DNA from: a virus
Lineage: Duplodnaviria > Heunggongvirae > Uroviricota > Caudoviricetes
Length of the DNA: 11,763 nucleotides
Virus record (IMG/VR): IMGVR_UViG_2700989507_000007
Coordinates: 1-11,763 of that record
Strand: one strand, 5' to 3'
Shown: positions 1 through 7,466 of the stretch, in pieces
How positions within the stretch are numbered: position 1 is the stretch's first letter
Layout: each line of letters opens with the position of its first letter
The notes under the pieces: model-generated
Database searches by the model: none
Seen by the model: only the letters and a program-made list of their open reading frames with translations
Told to the model about the DNA's origin: nothing
Made by a program: the position numbers and the translations under genes

Positions 1-170
1 ATGAGCTGATTTTTCCGTCCCTTCGCAGGGCAAACCTGGCGCTGCGCAGGGCGAAAAGTGATGTTCAGAAGTGGGAGCGAGTCTGCGCCGCGCTGCGGGA
101 GCTGAACAAGCACCGGGATATTGTTCGGCAGATTGTCGATTCATCCGGTCGTATTGTGTCGGAAAAGTGA
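1..170 (+). CDS. 3' end of an ORF that starts left of the window (hypothetical phage protein, last ~55 aa)
   Basis: Frame in phase with position 3 stays open to TGA at 168-170; tail translates ...RELNKHRDIVRQIVDSSGRIVSEK. Start is outside the window; family not recognised. Confidence 0.3.
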   Translation, partial: ELIFPSLRRANLALRRAKSDVQKWERVCAALRELNKHRDIVRQIVDSSGRIVSEK

Positions 171-185
171 TTGCCGGAGGCGCTT

Positions 186-578
186 ATGGCAAAAGTATTT
201 ACACCAGAAGAGCGGGAAGAAGTGAAGGCGCGCATTGTGGAATTCGTGCGCCTGAGCGGACGAGAAACTTTTCGACAACTGGCAGATAAAACGGGTGTCA
301 GTAAGACCGCTATTCGTCGTTTATCTGGTGCGCTTGCGGCCAGTGGTGATGTCTGGCTCTCTGGTTGCGGGGTATTTCTATCAGAGCAGGCGTATCGCGT
401 ATGGCGCAAGACACCGGAGAAGGCTGCTGACCCGACACTGATTCGAAAGTTACCTGACGGAGAAATACGTCGTTACAACAGACGGCAGAACATAATTTGT
501 CGTGAGTGCCGCCAGAGCGAAGTTATGCAGCGTGTGCTGGCGTTCTATCGGGGTAATTTTCAGGAGGTGATGGAGTGA
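186..578 (+). CDS. hypothetical phage protein with an HTH-like segment (LADKTGVSKTAIRRL)
   Basis: Track ORF 171..578; preferred start is ATG 186 with GGAGG at 176-180. Stop TGA 576-578 overlaps the next gene's GTG start (GTGA coupling). Confidence 0.55.
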   Translation: MAKVFTPEEREEVKARIVEFVRLSGRETFRQLADKTGVSKTAIRRLSGALAASGDVWLSGCGVFLSEQAYRVWRKTPEKAADPTLIRKLPDGEIRRYNRRQNIICRECRQSEVMQRVLAFYRGNFQEVME

Positions 579-874
579 GGGTGAGGGTTTATATCGCCGG
601 TCCGATGACCGGGTATAAAAATTTCAACCGTGAGGCGTTCAACAAGGCGGAAGAGGAACTGAAACGGGAAGGGCATACAGTCTTAAACCCGGCAGTACTT
701 CCGGACGGGCTGACACAGCCGCACTACATGGATATTTGCATGTCAATGATACGCTGCGTGGATGCGATTTACATGCTGAAAGGCTGGCAGCGGTCGGCAG
801 GCGCTAAGGCAGAACTGGCACTGGCGGAGAAGCTGGGGCATGCAGTTATTTTCCAGGAGGCAAACAGTGAGTAA
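575..874 (+). CDS. DUF4406-like protein (nucleoside 2-deoxyribosyltransferase-like fold), 99 aa
   Basis: Track ORF 575..874; N-terminal VYIAGPMTG motif typical of this family; AGGAGG-like site at 562-567 before GTG 575. Family name is from memory. Confidence 0.55.
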   Translation: MRVRVYIAGPMTGYKNFNREAFNKAEEELKREGHTVLNPAVLPDGLTQPHYMDICMSMIRCVDAIYMLKGWQRSAGAKAELALAEKLGHAVIFQEANSE

Positions 875-1331
875 CCAATGGCGACCAGATATTTGCCCAA
901 TAACCGGACGTGCATTTTTCATGTGGATTGAGCATCCGAAATTGGGAAATGTACCGACGTATGGTGGCCCATTAGACAGTTACACCATTCCAACAAAGGA
1001 CAGCGATGGTGAGTTTTCGTGTGAGCGTTACGATCATGATTTCGGTGGCTGGGTAGAAAGCGAATGTCTAGGGTTATATCTGATTGATGATGAAGAACAA
1101 TGCAGAGTCTACGAACTCAAGGAGCGCGTTAAAGAGCTGGAAGCGCGGGAAGTTCATTTACCGACTCGCTACGGCCTTCGATATGGACATCCGATAAATG
1201 CTGATGAGCGCCACGTCATGATACCTAAAGAAAATGGCTGCTGGATTTATCTGGCTGATTTAGAGCACGTACTACGTGTTGCTGGTATTCGCATCAAAGG
1301 GGAGGAGCATGGAAATCAAACCAGAAGATGA
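867..1331 (+). CDS. hypothetical phage protein (~154 aa), ends ...AGIRIKGEEHGNQTRR
   Basis: Track ORF 840..1331; preferred start GTG 867 with AGGAGG at 855-860 (6-nt spacer), just before the upstream stop at 872-874. Confidence 0.5.
   Translation: MSNQWRPDICPITGRAFFMWIEHPKLGNVPTYGGPLDSYTIPTKDSDGEFSCERYDHDFGGWVESECLGLYLIDDEEQCRVYELKERVKELEAREVHLPTRYGLRYGHPINADERHVMIPKENGCWIYLADLEHVLRVAGIRIKGEEHGNQTRR
1281..1300 (+). repeat. gene-boundary repeat copy 1 (GCTGGTATTCGCATCAAAGG)
   Basis: 19/20 nt identical to 4341-4360; both sit at the 3' end of a gene encoding ...AGIRIKGE, just before the next gene's ATG. Confidence 0.6.
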
Positions 1332-1665
1332 GTTAAGTAATATTGTTTTATTTCCGGTAAAAGAGGATGACCCACGTAATCAGGTTAATTTTCTTTATGA
1401 GCCATCGGAAAGACCATATTGTCATCACGCCTCTGTCCGGGTTGACGAAAAAGAGCGTCAGGTCCGTTGTAAAATCTGCGGTGCAGTTGTGGAGACGTTT
1501 GACTGGATGCTCTCTGTGGCAAAAAGAGAAACCAGACTGGCAGATGATGTAAGGCTCTTGCGCCAGGAGGAGCGGGAAAGGCGAAAAAATATAGAAAAGC
1601 TAATTCAGATTGAGCGTAACGCGAAAGCGCGGATACGCAGGGCGACAAAATCCAGAACTGAATAA
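1309..1665 (+). CDS. hypothetical phage protein with a putative zinc-ribbon (C-H-H ... C-x-x-C) and a basic coiled-coil tail, 118 aa
   Basis: Track ORF 1276..1665; ATG 1309 preceded by a purine-rich AAAGGGGAGGAGC; overlaps the 3' end of the upstream gene. Confidence 0.5.
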   Translation: MEIKPEDELSNIVLFPVKEDDPRNQVNFLYEPSERPYCHHASVRVDEKERQVRCKICGAVVETFDWMLSVAKRETRLADDVRLLRQEERERRKNIEKLIQIERNAKARIRRATKSRTE

Positions 1666-1734
1666 TTAAATTTAGCTCTGTTAAAAATTTAATCCTTAAC
1701 CGGAGGGATTTCTGCACCCTCAGAACATCAGGAG

Positions 1735-1752
1735 GCCGCCCGAAAGGGCGGT
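1735..1752 (+). promoter_or_regulatory. GC-rich hairpin (GCCGCCC-GAAA-GGGCGGT, GNRA-type loop) between a Shine-Dalgarno-like site and the start codon of the next small ORF
   Basis: 7-bp stem with one G-U pair seen directly; CAGGAGG at 1729-1735 and ATG at 1759. Folding would bring the SD to ~6 nt from the ATG. Confidence 0.35.
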
Positions 1753-1758
1753 AGTTAA

Positions 1759-1932
1759 ATGCGAAAGTTTAAAATAATTATTGAAACGGGAATAGCCGGT
1801 GGAGATTTCGAGGATGAATTCGAAGTGGATGATGATGCGACGCCTGATGAAATACATGACGAAGCAAAAGATATTTTCTTTAACTACTGCAATTACTCAT
1901 ATCACGAAATAAAAGACGAAGAGGAGGAATAA
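1759..1932 (+). CDS. small very acidic protein, 57 aa (MRKFKIIIETGIAGGDFEDEFEVDDD...KDEEEE), ~20 D/E residues
   Basis: Not in the track (<60 aa). ATG 1759, TAA 1930-1932; the next ORF starts 2 nt later behind a GAGGAGG site. Confidence 0.4.
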   Translation: MRKFKIIIETGIAGGDFEDEFEVDDDATPDEIHDEAKDIFFNYCNYSYHEIKDEEEE

Positions 1933-1933
1933 A

Positions 1934-2110
1934 ATGGCTGATTTTGGTTCAACTAAATACAGCGTCAGTTTTGAAGAATGGCATGAACTGTTAATGGACT
2001 ATGCAGAGTTACGTGGTGGCAGTGCTGCTGATGCTGAAGCATGGCGTGATGATTATGAAGCAGGGAAAACTGCGGTCGAAGCATATTGTGATGAGTGGGG
2101 CGATGAATGA
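1934..2110 (+). CDS. small acidic protein, 58 aa (MADFGSTKYSVSFEEWHELLMDYAELRGG...CDEWGDE)
   Basis: Not in the track. ATG 1934 with GAGGAGG at 1921-1927; stop TGA 2108-2110 overlaps ATG 2107 of the next gene (ATGA coupling). Confidence 0.4.
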   Translation: MADFGSTKYSVSFEEWHELLMDYAELRGGSAADAEAWRDDYEAGKTAVEAYCDEWGDE

Positions 2111-2395
2111 GCGAGATTGACTATCAGGCGCTGCGTGAAGCAGCAGAGAAAGCAACTAAAGGATGCTACATCGTAGGGCATACATCGGGCAATCAGCATG
2201 GGAATATAACAGGAGTTTTTGTTTGTCAAAAATGGAAAGGAGAACCCGGTGGCGTGATTGCAGAATGTCATGTTAACTGCCTGGTTGAAACAGATGCTCA
2301 GGCTTACGCAAACGCTGAATTTATTGCTGCCTTTAATCCAAATGTTGCGCTGGCGCTTCTGGATGAACGGGAAAGAAACCAGCAATACATCAAAC
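2107..2395 (+). pseudogene. 5' fragment of an Ead/Ea22-like phage gene, interrupted by the IS element after codon ...YIK
   Basis: Track ORF 2107..2463 runs into the IS and ends on IS-derived codons; N-terminus MSEIDYQALREAAEKATKG resembles Ead/Ea22-like proteins (from memory). Confidence 0.55.
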
Positions 2396-2437
2396 TGAAC
2401 CGCCCCGGTTTTCCTGGAGAGTGTTTTATCTGTGAAC

Positions 2438-3325
2438 TCAGGCTGCCAGATCATCGTTTCTGATGGAAGCATAATAAGCTTTTTCTGCTTCTGCCGGAGG
2501 GATATGACCCAGCCTTCCCAGCAATCGTCGATTGTTATACCAGTCCACCCACGTGAGTGTGGCCAGTTCCACTTCTGCACGGTTTTTCCAGCTCTTACGG
2601 TGTATTACCTCCGCTTTGTAAAGACCATTGATGCTCTCCGCCATCGCGTTGTCATACGAGTCACCTGTACTCCCTGTTGATGCCAGCAGTTTTGCTTCTT
2701 TTAGTCGCTCCGTATAGGCCAGTGATACATACTGAGAACCTTTATCACTGTGATGGACTGTGCCGGACGGCCGACGGGCCCACAACGCCTGCTCCAGTGC
2801 ATCCAGCACGAATGTCGTTTCCATAGACGATGAGACTCGCCACCCCACGATACATCCGGCAAACACATCAATGATGAACGCCACATAGACGAAGCCCTGC
2901 CATGTGCTGACGTAAGTAAAATCAGCCACCCACAGCTGGTCAGGACGTTCTGCCACGAACTGACGGTTTACGCGGTCGCCTGCGGAAACGGCTTTCCGGC
3001 TGACGGTAGTACGGACCTTTTTACCCCGGAGAACACCGGCAAGTCCCATAACCGCCATGAGGCGCGCCACTGTACATCTGGCCACCCTGATACCTTCGCG
3101 TAACAACTGGCGCCAGACTTTACGCACACCGTACACCTGATGATTTTCATCGTATACGCGCTGTATCTCTCTCTTCAGCCAGTCATCGCGCTGAGCACGG
3201 GCACTGCGTTTATCAGGATGATGTCGCTGTTGCTGACAGTGGTAATACGTTGACGGGGCAATATGCAGTTCACTGCATACCGGTCCGACCCCGTACTGCT
3301 CACGCAGCTTATCCAGCAGCGGCAT
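2438..3325 (-). CDS. IS3-family transposase OrfB (catalytic domain), 295 aa
   Basis: Track ORF 2438..3325 (-); its ATG overlaps the orfA stop in the -1 frame, the classic IS3 orfAB arrangement. Confidence 0.85.
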   Translation of the reverse strand: MPLLDKLREQYGVGPVCSELHIAPSTYYHCQQQRHHPDKRSARAQRDDWLKREIQRVYDENHQVYGVRKVWRQLLREGIRVARCTVARLMAVMGLAGVLRGKKVRTTVSRKAVSAGDRVNRQFVAERPDQLWVADFTYVSTWQGFVYVAFIIDVFAGCIVGWRVSSSMETTFVLDALEQALWARRPSGTVHHSDKGSQYVSLAYTERLKEAKLLASTGSTGDSYDNAMAESINGLYKAEVIHRKSWKNRAEVELATLTWVDWYNNRRLLGRLGHIPPAEAEKAYYASIRNDDLAA

Positions 3326-3651
3326 TATTTTTTCCAGAGGCGGTCGAACTCCGCCTTCGCAAAATAAGCGGAAGCCTGGCGAAGGATATCGTTACTGCGG
3401 CGCAGTTCACGATTTTCACGTTCCAGCTCTTTCAGACGCTGACGTTCAGCGGTGGTGAGTCCACCATCACCACTCCCGGTATCCCGCTCATGCTGACGAA
3501 CCCACACACGCAGAGTCTCTGGTGTACAGCCAATCTTTGGGGCAATGGAACAAATTGCCGCCCATTGTGAGTCATATTCGCCCTGACTTTCCAGAACCAT
3601 ACGAACTGCCCGTTGACGGACCTCGGGGGAAAAACGTGTATTTTTAGTCAT
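3325..3651 (-). CDS. IS3-family transposase OrfA (HTH plus leucine-zipper part), 108 aa
   Basis: Track ORF 3325..3651 (-), [19 protein letters not shown]...; ends at an A6 slippery run (plus-strand T6 at 3328-3333) where the -1 frameshift into orfB is expected. Confidence 0.85.
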
Positions 3652-3705
3652 CCTGTTTACCTCTTTCTCAGGGAGTTTAGTCTCCAGGATTCCCGGGGCG
3701 GTTCA

Positions 3706-4367
3706 AACGCCGCGACCAGGAGAACGAGGATATTGCGCTAACGGTAGGGAAGCTGCGCGTTGAGCTTGAAGCAGCAAAATCAAAACTCAACGAGCAGCGT
3801 GAATATTACGAGGGAGTAATCGCGGATGGAAGTAAGCGCATAGCAGAACTGGAAAAACAATGCGCCGAATGGGAGCGAAAAGCATTAAGCAACTTTGAAG
3901 AGTGTGCTGCGATGGCTGAACGTATCGAAGAGATGCAGACAAAATCTGCACCAGATTCGTTTGGCATCATCGGTGAAAATATTCGAACACAGGACAATCG
4001 AATAACGTCAGATCCCATGTTTTGTGTGTATCAAAAGCGCGAAATCGTTGTTGATGCTGATTATGACCATGACCGGATTGTCTGGGTTGACGAAGATGGC
4101 AATGAAGCCAATAAACGCCATAGTCGTCGTCTCGAGCTACTTCATGAAAACTTTCGAGAGCCACCAGAAAAATGGCGGCGCGTTGCTGTGAAAGATATTG
4201 ATGAATTCGTTACCTGCTGTTTCACCGAACAGGGTTGTAAAGACTACCTGGCAGTCAATGGTCACAATCTTCGCTTGCCATTTATATATGTAAAAAGCGG
4301 TTTCAGGAACGCTGAATATATCGGCATAAGAAACTGGCTTGCTGGCATTCGCATCAAAGGAGAGTGA
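3706..4367 (+). pseudogene. 3' part of the IS-interrupted Ead/Ea22-like gene
   Basis: Frame is open from the IS junction (codons in phase with 3708) through track ORF 3912..4367, checked codon by codon. Removing the IS and one AAC copy joins 2107-2395 to this in frame (~316 aa). Coiled-coil middle; ends ...NWLAGIRIKGE. Confidence 0.55.
4341..4360 (+). repeat. gene-boundary repeat copy 2 (GCTGGCATTCGCATCAAAGG)
   Basis: See copy 1; followed by ATG 4369. Confidence 0.6.
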
Positions 4368-4368
4368 T

Positions 4369-4884
4369 ATGGCGTTAACACACCGCGAACTCTGTCAGAT
4401 TGCGTACAAGTTCCTTAAGCGCAACGGGTTCAAGGTTTGTTTTCATGACCGCTTTATAGCTGTAACCAGTACCGGAGAACAGCCAGATGCTATGGGATTC
4501 AGAAATTCAGCATCATGCCTGATAGAGGCGAAATGTTCTCGTGCTGACTTGTTGGCAGATAGAAAAAAGCGTTTTCGTAAAAATCCGTCTCTTGGAATGG
4601 GCGACTGGCGATTCTTTATTAGTGAGCCGGGAATTATTTCAATTGAGGATTTACCACCTGGCTGGGGATTACTTCACGTTGTTAACGGAAGAGTACGGAA
4701 AGTACATGGGTGGCCCAAGGGTAATTGCTGTTGGGGTAATCCTGACGATAAGCCATTTACTGGAAATAAGCAGGTTGAATGCGATTACATGTTGTCTGCA
4801 TTAAGGCGCATGGAGTTGAGAGGGCACCTTAATGAAATATATGACGGTGTAATTGTTAATAAGAAAGAAGGAAACGCGGCATGA
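4369..4884 (+). CDS. hypothetical phage protein, 171 aa; possible PD-(D/E)XK nuclease fold
   Basis: Track ORF 4339..4884; preferred ATG 4369 with GGAG upstream. Motif GEQPD-x13-EAK seen in the translation. Confidence 0.5.
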
Positions 4885-5225
4885 CCACTATTACCAGAGA
4901 GCAGTTAATAGCTCACGCAGAGGAGACTATTGAAGCACAGAGACTGTGTATACCGGGCACAATCGACCATGACATCATCCGCACATATAAGATGGATATT
5001 GCTGTTCTGGAAATCGCACTGGCATCGCTGGCAGCAGAGCCAGCCGGTAAATTGCATGAATACAAACCAGTGGGGTATCAGCGTCTGGTCGACGAGTTAA
5101 CTATGCAGGTAAAGCAGTTAGCCTGGCAACTGAGGAAAGCGAAGCCGGACTGCAAACTGCCGGATAAGGCGATGGACTACCTGGAGCGAAACGGACTGAC
5201 AAGCGTGGAGGATGTTTTACGATGA
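4881..5225 (+). CDS. hypothetical phage protein, 114 aa
   Basis: Track ORF 4881..5225; ATG overlaps the upstream stop (ATGA). Confidence 0.5.
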
Positions 5226-5305
5226 CCAGGCCTGAAGCATTCACAACGGTAGGAATTGCGATGGCGGTGGCGCTGGTGGTGTATTCGATTTGCCGCTGGG
5301 GATAA
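5222..5305 (+). CDS. possible small hydrophobic peptide, 27 aa ([27 protein letters not shown])
   Basis: Not in the track. ATG 5222 overlaps the upstream stop; one predicted membrane-spanning stretch. Weak support. Confidence 0.2.
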
Positions 5306-5315
5306 ATCGCCGAAA

Positions 5316-5349
5316 AAAGATCCCGACACAAACATGAGCCGGGATCTTT
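5316..5349. terminator. bidirectional rho-independent terminator between convergent transcription units
   Basis: 10-bp perfect stem AAAGATCCCG / CGGGATCTTT with a 14-nt loop; A-run upstream and T-rich tract downstream, so it carries a U-tract on either strand. Confidence 0.55.
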
Positions 5350-5432
5350 GATTTATATAGCCTACGAATCCGCCAGTAAGAGAGGGGGGGGCGGACGGTT
5401 AATTCTAACACCGGAATGATGTGGGTAAAAGT

Positions 5433-5732
5433 TTATAAGAAATCGGTTTCATAACTTTGCCCACCATGATAGATACCGACAATAAAGACTTTTCTGCCAT
5501 CAACGGCAAAAGCAATAATCGTTCTGTGGCGGAAATGAGTTACCCGCATCCCCTGGCGAATATCATCGCGTTTATTGCCCCGATGCGGGAATGTAGAAAA
5601 CCCATCAAGATAATCAAGAAGCGCATTGGCAAAATTGTCAGCAATGACGTTCCCTGCTTTCTCCGTTATATATCTGTGCAGGTTGATTATTTGTTCTTCG
5701 GCCTCAGGAGTAATGATGACTTCATATGTCAT
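5433..5732 (-). CDS. parE: ParE/RelE-family type II toxin, 99 aa
   Basis: Track ORF 5433..5732 (-); size and sequence character of ParE-like toxins; directly downstream of an RHH antitoxin gene on the same strand. Confidence 0.75.
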   Translation of the reverse strand: MTYEVIITPEAEEQIINLHRYITEKAGNVIADNFANALLDYLDGFSTFPHRGNKRDDIRQGMRVTHFRHRTIIAFAVDGRKVFIVGIYHGGQSYETDFL

Positions 5733-5737
5733 GCAGA

Positions 5738-5995
5738 TTACTTCCCGGATCGAATCGCGGCGCGAACCTGTGAAATGGAGCGTCCGTTGTTTGGGTTTTC
5801 GCGGATAGAATCAAGAGAGGGGGCGGCTGAATGCGTTAACCACGCTTCGATTGCTTTATCGCGCTCATTCAGTGCGCGAAGCCCTTCACGAATGACCTCG
5901 CTTTCTGAAGCATAGGCACCGGAAGCCACACGGGCGCGCACCATGTCAGCCATTTCGTTAGTTAATGTAATGCTGAATTGTTGGGTTGTACGCAT
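5738..5995 (-). CDS. parD: ParD-type (ribbon-helix-helix) antitoxin, ~85 aa
   Basis: Inside track ORF 5738..6058 (-); preferred start is the internal ATG (reverse complement of 5993-5995) with GAGG 6 nt upstream. Contains ASESEVIREGLRAL, typical of ParD/CopG antitoxins. Stop lies 5 nt before the parE start. Confidence 0.7.
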   Translation of the reverse strand: MRTTQQFSITLTNEMADMVRARVASGAYASESEVIREGLRALNERDKAIEAWLTHSAAPSLDSIRENPNNGRSISQVRAAIRSGK

Positions 5996-6130
5996 GGTAA
6001 ACCTCACGGAGTAGGATAGAACACCATTCGATGATAGCACGTTGCCTGTTGACGACAACAGAAATCAGAGACAATATTGCCGCACGCCAGCTTGAACAAC
6101 TGGCACCTGCTGCGCCAGCAGAGAAAACCG

Positions 6131-6403
6131 ATGGCGCACAATACCAAACATCACAATTCTGATATCGCCCCTGCCAGCAGGCAAGGGCGGTGTTCTCACA
6201 CATTCAAATATGACTGGTATCAGCACGATCCCTGCACTGAAGAACAGGCCGAATGGCTGATTCATAACTACCGCAGACGTGGGTATGAGTTTAAGAAAGC
6301 CCTTAGCCTCGACTACCGTCACTGGATAATCTACGTCAGGCTCCTTTATTCCGAACGCCCGCCGCGTCCGTCCCGCACATTCCAGCAACGCATCTGGAGG
6401 TAA
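6131..6403 (+). CDS. hypothetical protein, ~90 aa
   Basis: Inside track ORF 6077..6403; ends immediately before the DUF968 gene start. Weak RBS; coding status uncertain. Confidence 0.3.
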   Translation: MAHNTKHHNSDIAPASRQGRCSHTFKYDWYQHDPCTEEQAEWLIHNYRRRGYEFKKALSLDYRHWIIYVRLLYSERPPRPSRTFQQRIWR

Positions 6404-6404
6404 C

Positions 6405-7454
6405 GTGCGGGTATTACTTCGACCTGTTCTGGTACCGGAACTCGGGCTGGTGATCGTTAAGCCGGGCCGTGAATCCATGCCGGTATTCCACAATACCCGG
6501 GTACTGGTGGAGCCGGAACCGAAAAGCATGCGTAATCTGCCGTCCGGCATCGTCCCTGCCGTTCGCCAGCCGCTAGTGGAAGACAAAACATTGCTGCCGT
6601 TTTTCAGTAACGCTCGGGTGATTCGTGCTGCTGGTGGCGCTGGCGCATTGTCTGACTGGTTACTGCGCCATGTTAAATCCTGCCAGTGGCCACACGGCGA
6701 TTATCATCACAGTGAAACCGTTATTCACCGTTATGGTACCGGCGCAATGGTGTTGTGCTGGCACTGCGACAACCAGCTGCGTGACCAGACATCCGAATCA
6801 CTCGAGCAACTTGCTCATCAAAACCTGTCAGCATGGATGATTGACGTCATCGGTCACGCAATATGCGGTACGCAGGAGCGTGAATTATCTCTGGCTGAAT
6901 TATCCTGGTGGGCGGTCCGCAATCAGGTGGCGGACGCGCTACCGGAAGCGGTATTACGTCGTTCGCTGGGGTTGCGTGCGGAAAAAATCCGCTCAGTGTA
7001 CCGTGAAAGCGACATCGTACCGGGAGAGCAGACCGCCACCAGCATACTGAAGCAGCGCACAAAAAATATTGCGCTACCGCCTCACACCCACCAGCAACAG
7101 AACCCACCACAGGAAAAGACGGTGGTCAGCATTGCCGTTGATCCGGAGTCTCCGGAATCCTTCATGAAACGACCTAAACGTCGCCGCTGGGTAAATGAGA
7201 AATACACACGCTGGGTAAAGACACAGCCGTGTGCGTGTTGTGGTAAGCCAGCGGACGATCCTCATCATCTGATTGGTCATGGTCAGGGTGGAATGGGAAC
7301 AAAATCCCACGATATTTTCACGCTACCGCTGTGTCGGGAGCATCACAACGAGCTTCATGCGGATCCGCTGGCGTTCGAAGAAAAGCATGGTTCCCAGGTT
7401 GATTTAATTTTTCGTTTTCTTGATCACGCCTTTGCGACTGGCGTGCTCGGGTAA
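6405..7454 (+). CDS. DUF968-family prophage protein (YdfU-like) with a C-terminal Cys/His HNH-like motif, 349 aa
   Basis: Track ORF 6405..7454; GTG start with GGAGG at 6396-6400. C-terminal CACCG...DDPHHLIGHG...CREHHNELH. Sits directly upstream of rusA, as in known prophages. Confidence 0.7.
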   Translation: MRVLLRPVLVPELGLVIVKPGRESMPVFHNTRVLVEPEPKSMRNLPSGIVPAVRQPLVEDKTLLPFFSNARVIRAAGGAGALSDWLLRHVKSCQWPHGDYHHSETVIHRYGTGAMVLCWHCDNQLRDQTSESLEQLAHQNLSAWMIDVIGHAICGTQERELSLAELSWWAVRNQVADALPEAVLRRSLGLRAEKIRSVYRESDIVPGEQTATSILKQRTKNIALPPHTHQQQNPPQEKTVVSIAVDPESPESFMKRPKRRRWVNEKYTRWVKTQPCACCGKPADDPHHLIGHGQGGMGTKSHDIFTLPLCREHHNELHADPLAFEEKHGSQVDLIFRFLDHAFATGVLG

Positions 7455-7466
7455 AAGAGGTGACTG

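Follow-up and report, generated by a model that had tools for sequence, protein, structure and literature searches.

The DNA analysed here, referred to as the window, is an 11,763-bp stretch of a virus record in IMG/VR (IMGVR_UViG_2700989507_000007). Positions 2396..3705 are occupied by a complete insertion sequence of 1310 bp, which lies on the minus strand and aligns over its full length with IS629 (IS3 family), subtype II (Shigella/O55:H7 type). The element starts with TGAACC and ends with GGTTCA; TG...CA termini are the ends typical of the IS3 family. The terminal inverted repeats, IRR at the orfB-distal end (2396..2420) and IRL at the orfA-proximal end (3681..3705), are imperfect: the first 13 bases pair perfectly (13/13), and 22 of the first 25 are complementary. 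The trinucleotide AAC is directly repeated on both sides of the element, with the left copy at 2393..2395 and the right copy at 3706..3708, and this 3-bp target-site duplication fits the 3-4 bp reported for IS629 (PMC3271280). The initial annotation had described a 1310-bp element with imperfect inverted repeats and a direct AAC repeat, and we arrived at the same coordinates throughout. A 3-bp direct repeat is expected by chance alone at a frequency of 1/64; the decisive evidence for an insertion is the exact empty site found in other genomes (see below).

Annotated GenBank copies served as the naming reference for the element. It is 99.6% identical to the annotated IS629 of the O55:H7 phage JLK-2012, 95.6% identical to both the VT2-Sakai feature "insertion sequence:IS629" and IS1203v of phage Stx2 II, and 95.4% identical to a copy from O111 whose transposase is named IS1203 family by NCBI. 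Copies on plasmids, on chromosomes and in one Stx2a phage are 100% identical to it over the full length. By ISfinder practice, elements with >90% nucleotide identity are isoforms, and the identity of the window IS to the named IS629 elements is above this value. The earlier designation "IS629-like" can be sharpened to IS629 on the basis of the JLK-2012 and VT2-Sakai copies. Following the subtype scheme of PMC3271280, the element is, as judged from its nucleotide sequence, a subtype II (Shigella/O55:H7-type) IS629 and not the O157 type; the O157 Sakai IS629, IS1203v and the O111 IS1203-type copy are all ~4.5% divergent from it. Like IS629 of Shigella and Shiga-toxin-producing E. coli (isoforms IS1203, IS1203v and IS3411), it is 1310 bp long and located in a prophage, and it shares with them the TG...CA ends, the orfA/orfB frames in the 0/-1 arrangement, an A6 run, an ALIL pseudoknot, a DDE (rve) domain and the 3-bp duplication.

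Both transposase frames are open on the minus strand. The HTH DNA-binding part is encoded by orfA (3325..3651, 108 aa; Pfam HTH_Tnp_1, E = 1.4e-12), and the DDE catalytic part by orfB (2438..3325, 295 aa; Pfam rve with E = 1.1e-25, HTH_21 and rve_3), which is in the -1 frame relative to orfA; the TAA stop codon of orfA shares one base with the ATG of orfB. The A6 slippery run for programmed -1 frameshifting (3328..3333, minus strand) is located directly 5' of the orfA stop (AAA AAA TAA) and falls within a match to the ALIL pseudoknot, a frameshift stimulator (3254..3370, minus strand; Rfam RF01497, full model 1-117, 120.9 bits vs a gathering score of 50, E = 1.3e-31). This ALIL feature is also annotated by PGAP in IS629/IS1203 copies. 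When orfA and orfB are conceptually fused, the resulting OrfAB protein matches NCBIfam NF033516 "IS3 family transposase" over 1-369 of 369 positions (364 bits, cutoff 160). IS1203v/IS629 has been described with the same organization, in which a -1 frameshift links orfA to orfB and a DDE motif is present (bioRxiv 10.1101/2023.06.07.543989). The Pfam, Rfam and NCBIfam results agree with the initial annotation, in which the transposase frames and the A6 site were considered intact, and add an intact ALIL pseudoknot.

The element is inserted in a gene of the ead/Ea22-like family, at codon 96/97 and inside the Ead_Ea22 domain. The 5' fragment (2107..2395, plus strand) consists of codons 1-96 and the first base of codon 97; it equals the first 289 nt of intact CDSs, with PF13935 starting at residue 2. 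The 3' fragment (3709..4367, plus strand) runs from the rest of codon 97 to the stop codon, equals nt 290-948 of the intact CDSs, and encodes what remains of the Ead_Ea22 domain, followed by a variable module at the C terminus. The ORF now present (2107..2463, plus strand) is truncated to 118 aa, that is, 96 native residues and a 22-aa tail translated from the IS end. After removal of the IS and one AAC copy, 2107-2395 is joined to 3709-4367 in a frame of 948 nt, which is divisible by 3, is free of internal stop codons and encodes 315 aa plus the stop codon. The in-frame fusion without a stop that had been proposed from the sequence is correct, and only its length of ~316 aa needs adjustment, as that figure counts the stop codon. 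No fewer than 10 complete E. coli genomes contain one annotated "ead/Ea22-like family protein" CDS that matches the reconstructed ORF with 100% identity and 100% coverage (for example WP_032163038.1 in strain RM13322, locus positions 3001-3948). The alignment to intact alleles (948/948 nt identical, one gene) contains no other difference, in agreement with the proposal that the IS is the only evident disruption. In the reconstructed protein, Pfam Ead_Ea22 (PF13935 / IPR025153) covers residues 2-145 (154.5 bits, E = 3.3e-45, cutoff 27) and the profile is matched end to end (1-139/139); Pfam gave no match to the C-terminal module.

The closest prophage is found in strain C325; on the right side of the IS it is 99.7% identical to the window over 8,063 bp. 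It carries an empty site, which reads ...CATCAAAC|GCCGCG with a single AAC. Comparison with related strains, which had been proposed together with the reconstruction, thus revealed empty alleles, including the one in this nearest prophage. The window flanks align to C325 as 1277-2395 and 3703-11763, and their sole overlap is TCAAAC, composed of the AAC duplication and three IS-terminal bases (TCA). A 6-bp duplication TCAAAC, as suggested by the 6-base alignment overlap at empty sites, was considered and rejected, because the three additional bases, TCA, belong to the canonical IS end (GGTTCA) and match the target by chance. Further to the left, the region 237-1276 of the window differs from the nearest relatives, which shows past recombination. 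According to the C325 annotation, the ead/Ea22-like gene is preceded by replication-type genes (HTH, ATP-binding, DUF1627 and DUF977) and followed by a RelE/ParD pair, DUF968, RusA and DUF1133; the gene belongs to the early-right accessory (nin-like) region of a lambdoid prophage of E. coli. A 171-aa ORF immediately downstream (4369-4884) looks intact in the window and is annotated as "frameshifted" in relatives; its DNA is identical in C325, so this is a matter of annotation and not a difference of the window. A promoter and terminator scan of 1700-4500 returned nothing above shuffled expectation.

The IS boundaries, the duplication, the exact empty site, the identity of the gene and the intact IS signals are direct observations, and we are highly confident that they reflect a single transposition of a complete IS629 into codon 96/97 of the ead/Ea22-like gene, with inactivation of the gene. 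IS629, as an IS3-family element, transposes by a copy-out-paste-in pathway via a circular intermediate. One such event would have placed the complete element in codon 96/97 with its transposase antisense to the gene, and staggered cleavage of the target followed by repair would have duplicated AAC. The insertion parts the N-terminal piece of the Ead_Ea22 domain from the domain remainder and the C-terminal module, and all that is left of the gene is an N-terminal stub of 118 aa, the last 22 of them foreign, and a 3' part that lacks a promoter. In a host with the IS-excision enhancer IEE, precise excision could undo the insertion and restore ...CATCAAACGCCGCG...; IEE together with the transposase gives precise excision of IS1203v/IS629 (bioRxiv 10.1101/2023.06.07.543989).

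We next consider the age and mobility of the insertion. A 32-mer scan for the exact left junction found it in none of the GTDB species genomes, IMG/VR or the JGI metagenomes, and when the two junctions were compared by megablast with 5,426 complete E. coli genomes, none of these had an insertion in the same register. Absence of the exact junction from the collections searched fits a recent, lineage-private insertion. We infer that the insertion is probably private to its lineage and that it is recent, the latter being well supported by the lack of flank divergence, the perfect duplication, the intact coding and frameshift signals, and the identical IS copies elsewhere. These lines of evidence differ in weight: zero flank divergence only sets an upper limit on the age, given by the resolution that a 948-bp gene offers, and a perfect 3-bp duplication, kept by 19 of 38 complete IS629 copies in a sample, is mild and not strong evidence of youth. 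Copies 100% identical to the window IS interrupt bluF, gspD, a T6SS sheath gene, autotransporter genes, the gene for a restriction-modification subunit M and integrase genes, in strains of O145, O103, O45 and O80. The presence of identical copies in such unrelated genes means that this exact sequence variant has moved recently. With orfA, orfB, the A6 run and ALIL intact and identical copies at many unrelated sites, it is plausible that the IS in the window is still able to transpose.

Could the flanks instead be two normally separate neighbouring genes, with the IS between them and the in-frame fusion a coincidence? The family is mosaic, with a conserved N-terminal and coiled-coil part and an exchangeable C-terminal domain (PMC10834534), and this architecture is borne out here: phrog_368 (residues 1-173) and phrog_3205 (residues 162-314) match different parts of the protein, and among the gene matches, at 4,380 places in 2,550 genomes, most cover only part of the gene, with no more than 333 of the 2,550 genomes spanning at least 80% of it. 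However, the module boundary lies near residue 160-170, away from the insertion codon and not at residue 96, the Ead_Ea22 domain runs unbroken across 96/97, and phrog_250 spans residues 1-314. The single 948-nt CDS at 100% nucleotide identity in NCBI-annotated genomes (at least 10) refutes a pair of neighbours, and together with the domain running across codon 96/97 it indicates one gene and one domain split by the IS; we give the two-gene reading practically no chance. A misplacement of the multi-copy IS by short-read assembly is also extremely improbable. A genome can contain IS629 at up to about 50 locations, a classic source of misassembly, yet a misjoin would not yield a perfect 3-bp duplication and, on removal, an exact in-frame known gene, and both junctions agree with one simple insertion. 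An old insertion fixed in a decaying prophage, with an immobile IS copy, deserves somewhat more attention and is still improbable. The evidence comes from one window of prophage, the recombined region 237-1276 is part of the same DNA, and many prophage IS629 copies are shared by descent (PMC3271280). Against this stand the flanks with 0 differences over 948 nt from intact alleles, the perfect duplication, the 100% identity of the IS to copies at many other loci, the intact coding and RNA signals, and the absence of the junction from the complete genomes searched (5,426) as well as from three further collections.

A further reading is compatible with a single recent transposition and concerns why the IS landed where it did: Ea22-like genes, especially around codon 96, may be preferred by IS629, or their inactivation may be selected. 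Strain AUSMDU00002545 has an independent IS629-family insertion 9 bp upstream of the window site (AAT duplication), strain 95-3192 has one 75 bp downstream (CAA duplication; a divergent, IS1203-like type with 95.0% identity to the window IS), and the O157:H7 strain 146N4 has one near codon 22 of an Ea22-like gene; in O111 strains an IS1203-type copy is found in the next gene downstream. The transposase is antisense to the gene in all of these insertions. Moreover, the sequence to the left of the window IS is similar to that beside two unrelated IS629 copies, one in a lysozyme gene (21/25 identical) and one on a plasmid. On the other hand, four insertions sharing one orientation have a chance probability of ~0.125, Ea22-like genes are numerous (the 4,380 places above), and IS629 favours prophages generally, with 62% of copies/sites located in them (PMC3271280), so that a few insertions in Ea22-like genes are to be expected. 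An unbiased set of 116 unique IS629 flanks, obtained from a pattern scan of viral contigs, contained neither a distal motif nor an excess of similarity to the window flank: among ~5,400 k-mer tests none survived correction (best p = 3.9e-5), and anchored similarity to the window flank averaged 17.1 vs 16.7 matches. A distal target motif TTCTGGATGAA..GGAA at 30-39 bp from the IS end was rejected as a general motif. Taken together, a non-random choice of site is unlikely. It is also rather doubtful, and slightly more so, that Ea22-like genes form a recurrent landing zone for the IS629 family, with four independent gene-splitting insertions including that of the window, three of them within ~85 bp around codon 96. 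Such a zone could be due to a target structure or sequence feature missed by earlier surveys of +/-25 bp, or to selected loss of a prophage gene, in which case the gene could be one that influences the lysis-lysogeny decision. In passing, we noticed a weak local target preference, C-N-[NNN]-N-G, with C at -5 in 62 of 116 flanks and G at +5 in 11 of 19; the site in the window agrees with it on just one side.

Ea22 of phage lambda and its variants in Stx phages are pro-lysogenic proteins of the exo-xis region (PMC7093339, PMC10834534). [quoted passage not shown] Lambda Ea22, however, has 182 aa and is encoded between exo and xis, whereas the window gene encodes 315 aa and follows replication genes; by the C325 annotation it is located outside the exo-xis position of the early-left operon. 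The gene is a member of the Ead_Ea22 domain family and not a positional orthologue of lambda ea22. As for the event, inactivations by IS629/IS1203v in EHEC, such as stx2::IS1203v and gne::IS629, are of the same form: a simple insertion disables a gene within or close to a prophage and leaves a short duplication. They are potentially reversible via IEE (bioRxiv 10.1101/2023.06.07.543989; PMC3271280; PMC10810198). The differences in IS629 position between the Stx prophages PA2 and PA8 represent the same kind of event. Unlike stx2 or gne, the target in the window is an accessory gene.

The kind of IS629 found here is already known; none of the collections searched contained it at this insertion site. 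For annotation, both fragments should be treated as one ead/Ea22-like pseudogene interrupted by IS629, a disruption that could revert precisely if the host carries IEE. Polymorphisms of IS629 sites are already in use for subtyping STEC lineages, and the junction is therefore a potential strain-typing marker. Only the possible clustering in Ea22-like genes and the C-N-[NNN]-N-G preference might be worth a systematic census. The insertion itself is an ordinary event, one more example of IS629 remodelling the accessory regions of prophages.

A 1310-bp element occupies 2396-3705, beginning TGAACCGCCCCGG and ending CCGGGGCGGTTCA; its two ends match each other at 13/13 bases at the tips and at 22 of the first 25. 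An AAC duplication lies directly outside either end (2393-2395 and 3706-3708). When the element and one AAC are deleted, 2107-2395 is joined in frame to 3709-4367, giving a 948-nt ORF that has no internal stop and encodes 315 aa plus stop. The initial annotation had proposed an IS629-like element interrupting one gene whose parts fuse in frame with no stop at the junction (about 316 aa), and its coordinates, ends and AAC repeats were all reproduced.

Complete genomes of at least 10 E. coli strains, including O145:H28 and O103:H2 isolates and RM13322, contain the reconstructed 948 nt with 100% identity over 100% of its length, and every one of these matches is annotated as "ead/Ea22-like family protein". 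The RM13322 CDS (WP_032163038.1) is exactly the reconstructed sequence. The most window-like prophage, in E. coli strain C325 (99.7% identity across 8,063 bp right of the IS), likewise has an uninterrupted ead/Ea22-like gene. The window flanks align with C325 up to 2395 and from 3703, sharing only TCAAAC: AAC is the duplication, and the TCA before it is the IS terminus, whose three bases match the target by chance. Pfam Ead_Ea22 (PF13935) matches the reconstructed protein over the whole profile (residues 2-145; 154.5 bits, cutoff 27), so the insertion at codon 96/97 cuts inside this single domain, not at a module boundary; by PHROG matches, the conserved N-terminal part gives way to the variable C-terminal module near residues 160-170. 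If the two parts were normally separate genes, or if no empty site existed, the proposal would fall; intact genomes carry a single 948-nt CDS with the domain across the junction, and C325, RM13322 and others have the gene uninterrupted. Both flanks are one ead/Ea22-like gene.

The inserted element is 99.6% identical over its full length to the IS629 carried by the O55:H7 phage JLK-2012, 95.6% identical both to the VT2-Sakai feature "insertion sequence:IS629" and to IS1203v of phage Stx2 II, and 95.4% identical to a copy in an O111 strain, whose transposase is named IS1203 family by NCBI. IS629 has three subtypes 4-5% apart, of which the Shigella-like subtype II is carried by O55:H7 (Rump et al., PMC3271280); the window copy is of subtype II. 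IS629 duplications are reported to be 3-4 bp long (PMC3271280), which the 3-bp AAC fits. As initially annotated, the transposase frames are intact and include an A6 run: orfA (3651..3325; 108 aa; HTH_Tnp_1) and orfB (3325..2438; 295 aa; -1 frame relative to orfA; HTH_21, rve, rve_3) are open on the minus strand, the A6 run (3333..3328, minus) directly precedes the orfA stop, and this TAA shares one base with the orfB ATG. Joining the two frames conceptually by a -1 shift at the A6 run yields a protein that covers the full NCBIfam model for IS3-family transposases (364 bits, cutoff 160), and a complete ALIL frameshift-stimulating pseudoknot surrounds the slip site (3370..3254, minus; Rfam 120.9 bits, gathering score 50).

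IS3-family elements form a circular copy whose ends abut, and this circle inserts at a 3-bp staggered cut; repair of such a cut would have generated the AAC duplication. The 5' product is now 118 aa, 96 native residues followed by 22 from the IS end, and the 3' remnant is left without its own start, its first in-frame ATG being at 3912. Ea22 of lambda and the variants found in Stx phages are built of an N-terminal segment, a coiled coil and a C-terminal domain that varies, and the last alone fails to reproduce the pro-lysogenic effect (PMC10834534, PMC7093339). Since that domain is insufficient alone, loss of function would be expected for the split gene. The window gene is not the positional orthologue of lambda ea22: the latter lies between exo and xis, whereas the former follows replication-type genes and precedes a RelE/ParD pair, DUF968, RusA and DUF1133. 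A consensus scan neither supported nor contradicted polarity on downstream genes.

Copies 100% identical to all 1310 bases are found on several plasmids, on a Stx2a phage and at many unrelated chromosomal sites in O145, O103, O45 and O80 strains, where they break bluF, gspD, type VI sheath, autotransporter, restriction-modification subunit and integrase genes. These identical copies at unrelated sites indicate that this sequence variant has transposed repeatedly in the recent past. Compared with intact alleles, the window flanks have 0 substitutions, and the AAC is perfectly duplicated. The exact left junction was not found in GTDB species genomes, IMG/VR or JGI metagenomes, nor was either junction found in the same register among 5,426 complete E. 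coli genomes. Taken together with the identical copies elsewhere, these observations support an insertion that is probably young and private to its lineage, made by an element that is probably still competent. Precise excision of IS1203v/IS629 is known to occur given transposase and the IS-excision enhancer IEE (bioRxiv 10.1101/2023.06.07.543989), so the disruption could be reversible in an IEE-positive host.

Independent IS629-family insertions occur in or beside ead/Ea22-like genes of other E. coli genomes, with the transposase antisense to the gene in all. The AUSMDU00002545 copy (L004, 3039-4348) lies 9 bp upstream of the window site and is of the same subtype, with 6 mismatches and an AAT duplication; that of 95-3192 (L005, 3127-4436) lies 75 bp downstream and is of a divergent IS1203-like type, 95.0% identical to the window IS, with a CAA duplication. 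IS1203-type copies are also located around codon 22 in an Ea22-like gene of the exo-xis region in O157:H7 strain 146N4 (L128, about 841-2150) and in the next ORF downstream of the Ea22-like gene in O111 strains (L003, 3267-4576). A true IS629 hot spot in Ea22-like genes is possible but unsupported. A distal sequence motif was rejected as a general explanation: in 116 unique IS629 flanks, which a pattern scan of viral contigs had gathered irrespective of Ea22 genes, no k-mer was enriched after correction, and their similarity to the window flank was not above that of random sequence. Ead/Ea22-like genes abound (4,380 places in 2,550 genomes), and prophages are the favoured location of IS629, with 62% of its sites (PMC3271280); as no distal motif emerged either, the simplest reading of the recurrence is that permissive targets are many.

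There is a weak local preference in the IS629 family, C-N-[3-bp duplication]-N-G and roughly palindromic: position -5 is C in 62 of 116 unique flanks (p = 8e-14), and +5 is G in 11 of the 19 complete copies with a perfect duplication, which only 19 of 38 complete copies retain. Only one side of the window site (C A [AAC] G C) agrees with this preference; no pattern was reported by a 2011 survey that covered +/-25 bp. Separately, the left flank at 2357-2395 (TTCTGGATGAACGGGAAAGAAACCA...) shares 21/25 positions with the flank of an unrelated IS1203-type copy inserted into a phage lysozyme gene of O157:H7 strain OK1 (L006, 1501-1538), and it also resembles a plasmid-copy flank (L007, 1501-1538). 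Across the unbiased flank sample the likeness to L006 does not hold as a general motif; it may be coincidental, the encoded peptides being similar (LDERERN vs LDEKEGN).

Elsewhere in the window, 237-1276 has no counterpart in the closest prophages (C325, RM13322), to which both sides align; here, past the replication genes, one module of the mosaic has been replaced. The Ea22-like gene is followed immediately, at 4369-4884, by an open 171-aa ORF (PHROG 9263/631, function unknown), the same ORF hit by IS1203 in O111 strains; NCBI annotates a 179-bp "frameshifted" pseudogene in the identical C325 DNA, apparently an inconsistency of annotation. The early-right region also encodes, on the minus strand (5433-6058), a RelE/ParE-type toxin with a ParD-type antitoxin; the assignment follows how the near-identical prophages of C325 and RM13322 are annotated. 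Two tRNA genes (10059-10291) lie downstream of a DNA methyltransferase gene: tRNA-Arg (TCT) and one with anticodon CAT, called Met by ARAGORN and tRNA-Ile in the C325 annotation. Beyond them C325 has TerB-family and DUF3927 genes; the annotation of the matching part of C325 includes no stx gene. Two prophage-borne regulatory RNAs occupy 11060-11314, namely STnc100 (11060-11252, plus strand; Rfam 145.8 bits) and, adjoining it on the opposite strand, the anti-GcvB sRNA AgvB (11253-11314; 96.5 bits).

We concluded that the IS629 split of the Ea22-like gene is real and was correctly interpreted at the outset. Its novelty is limited to the particular insertion site, which was not found elsewhere in the collections searched; otherwise it is a routine case of IS629 insertional inactivation in a STEC-type prophage.
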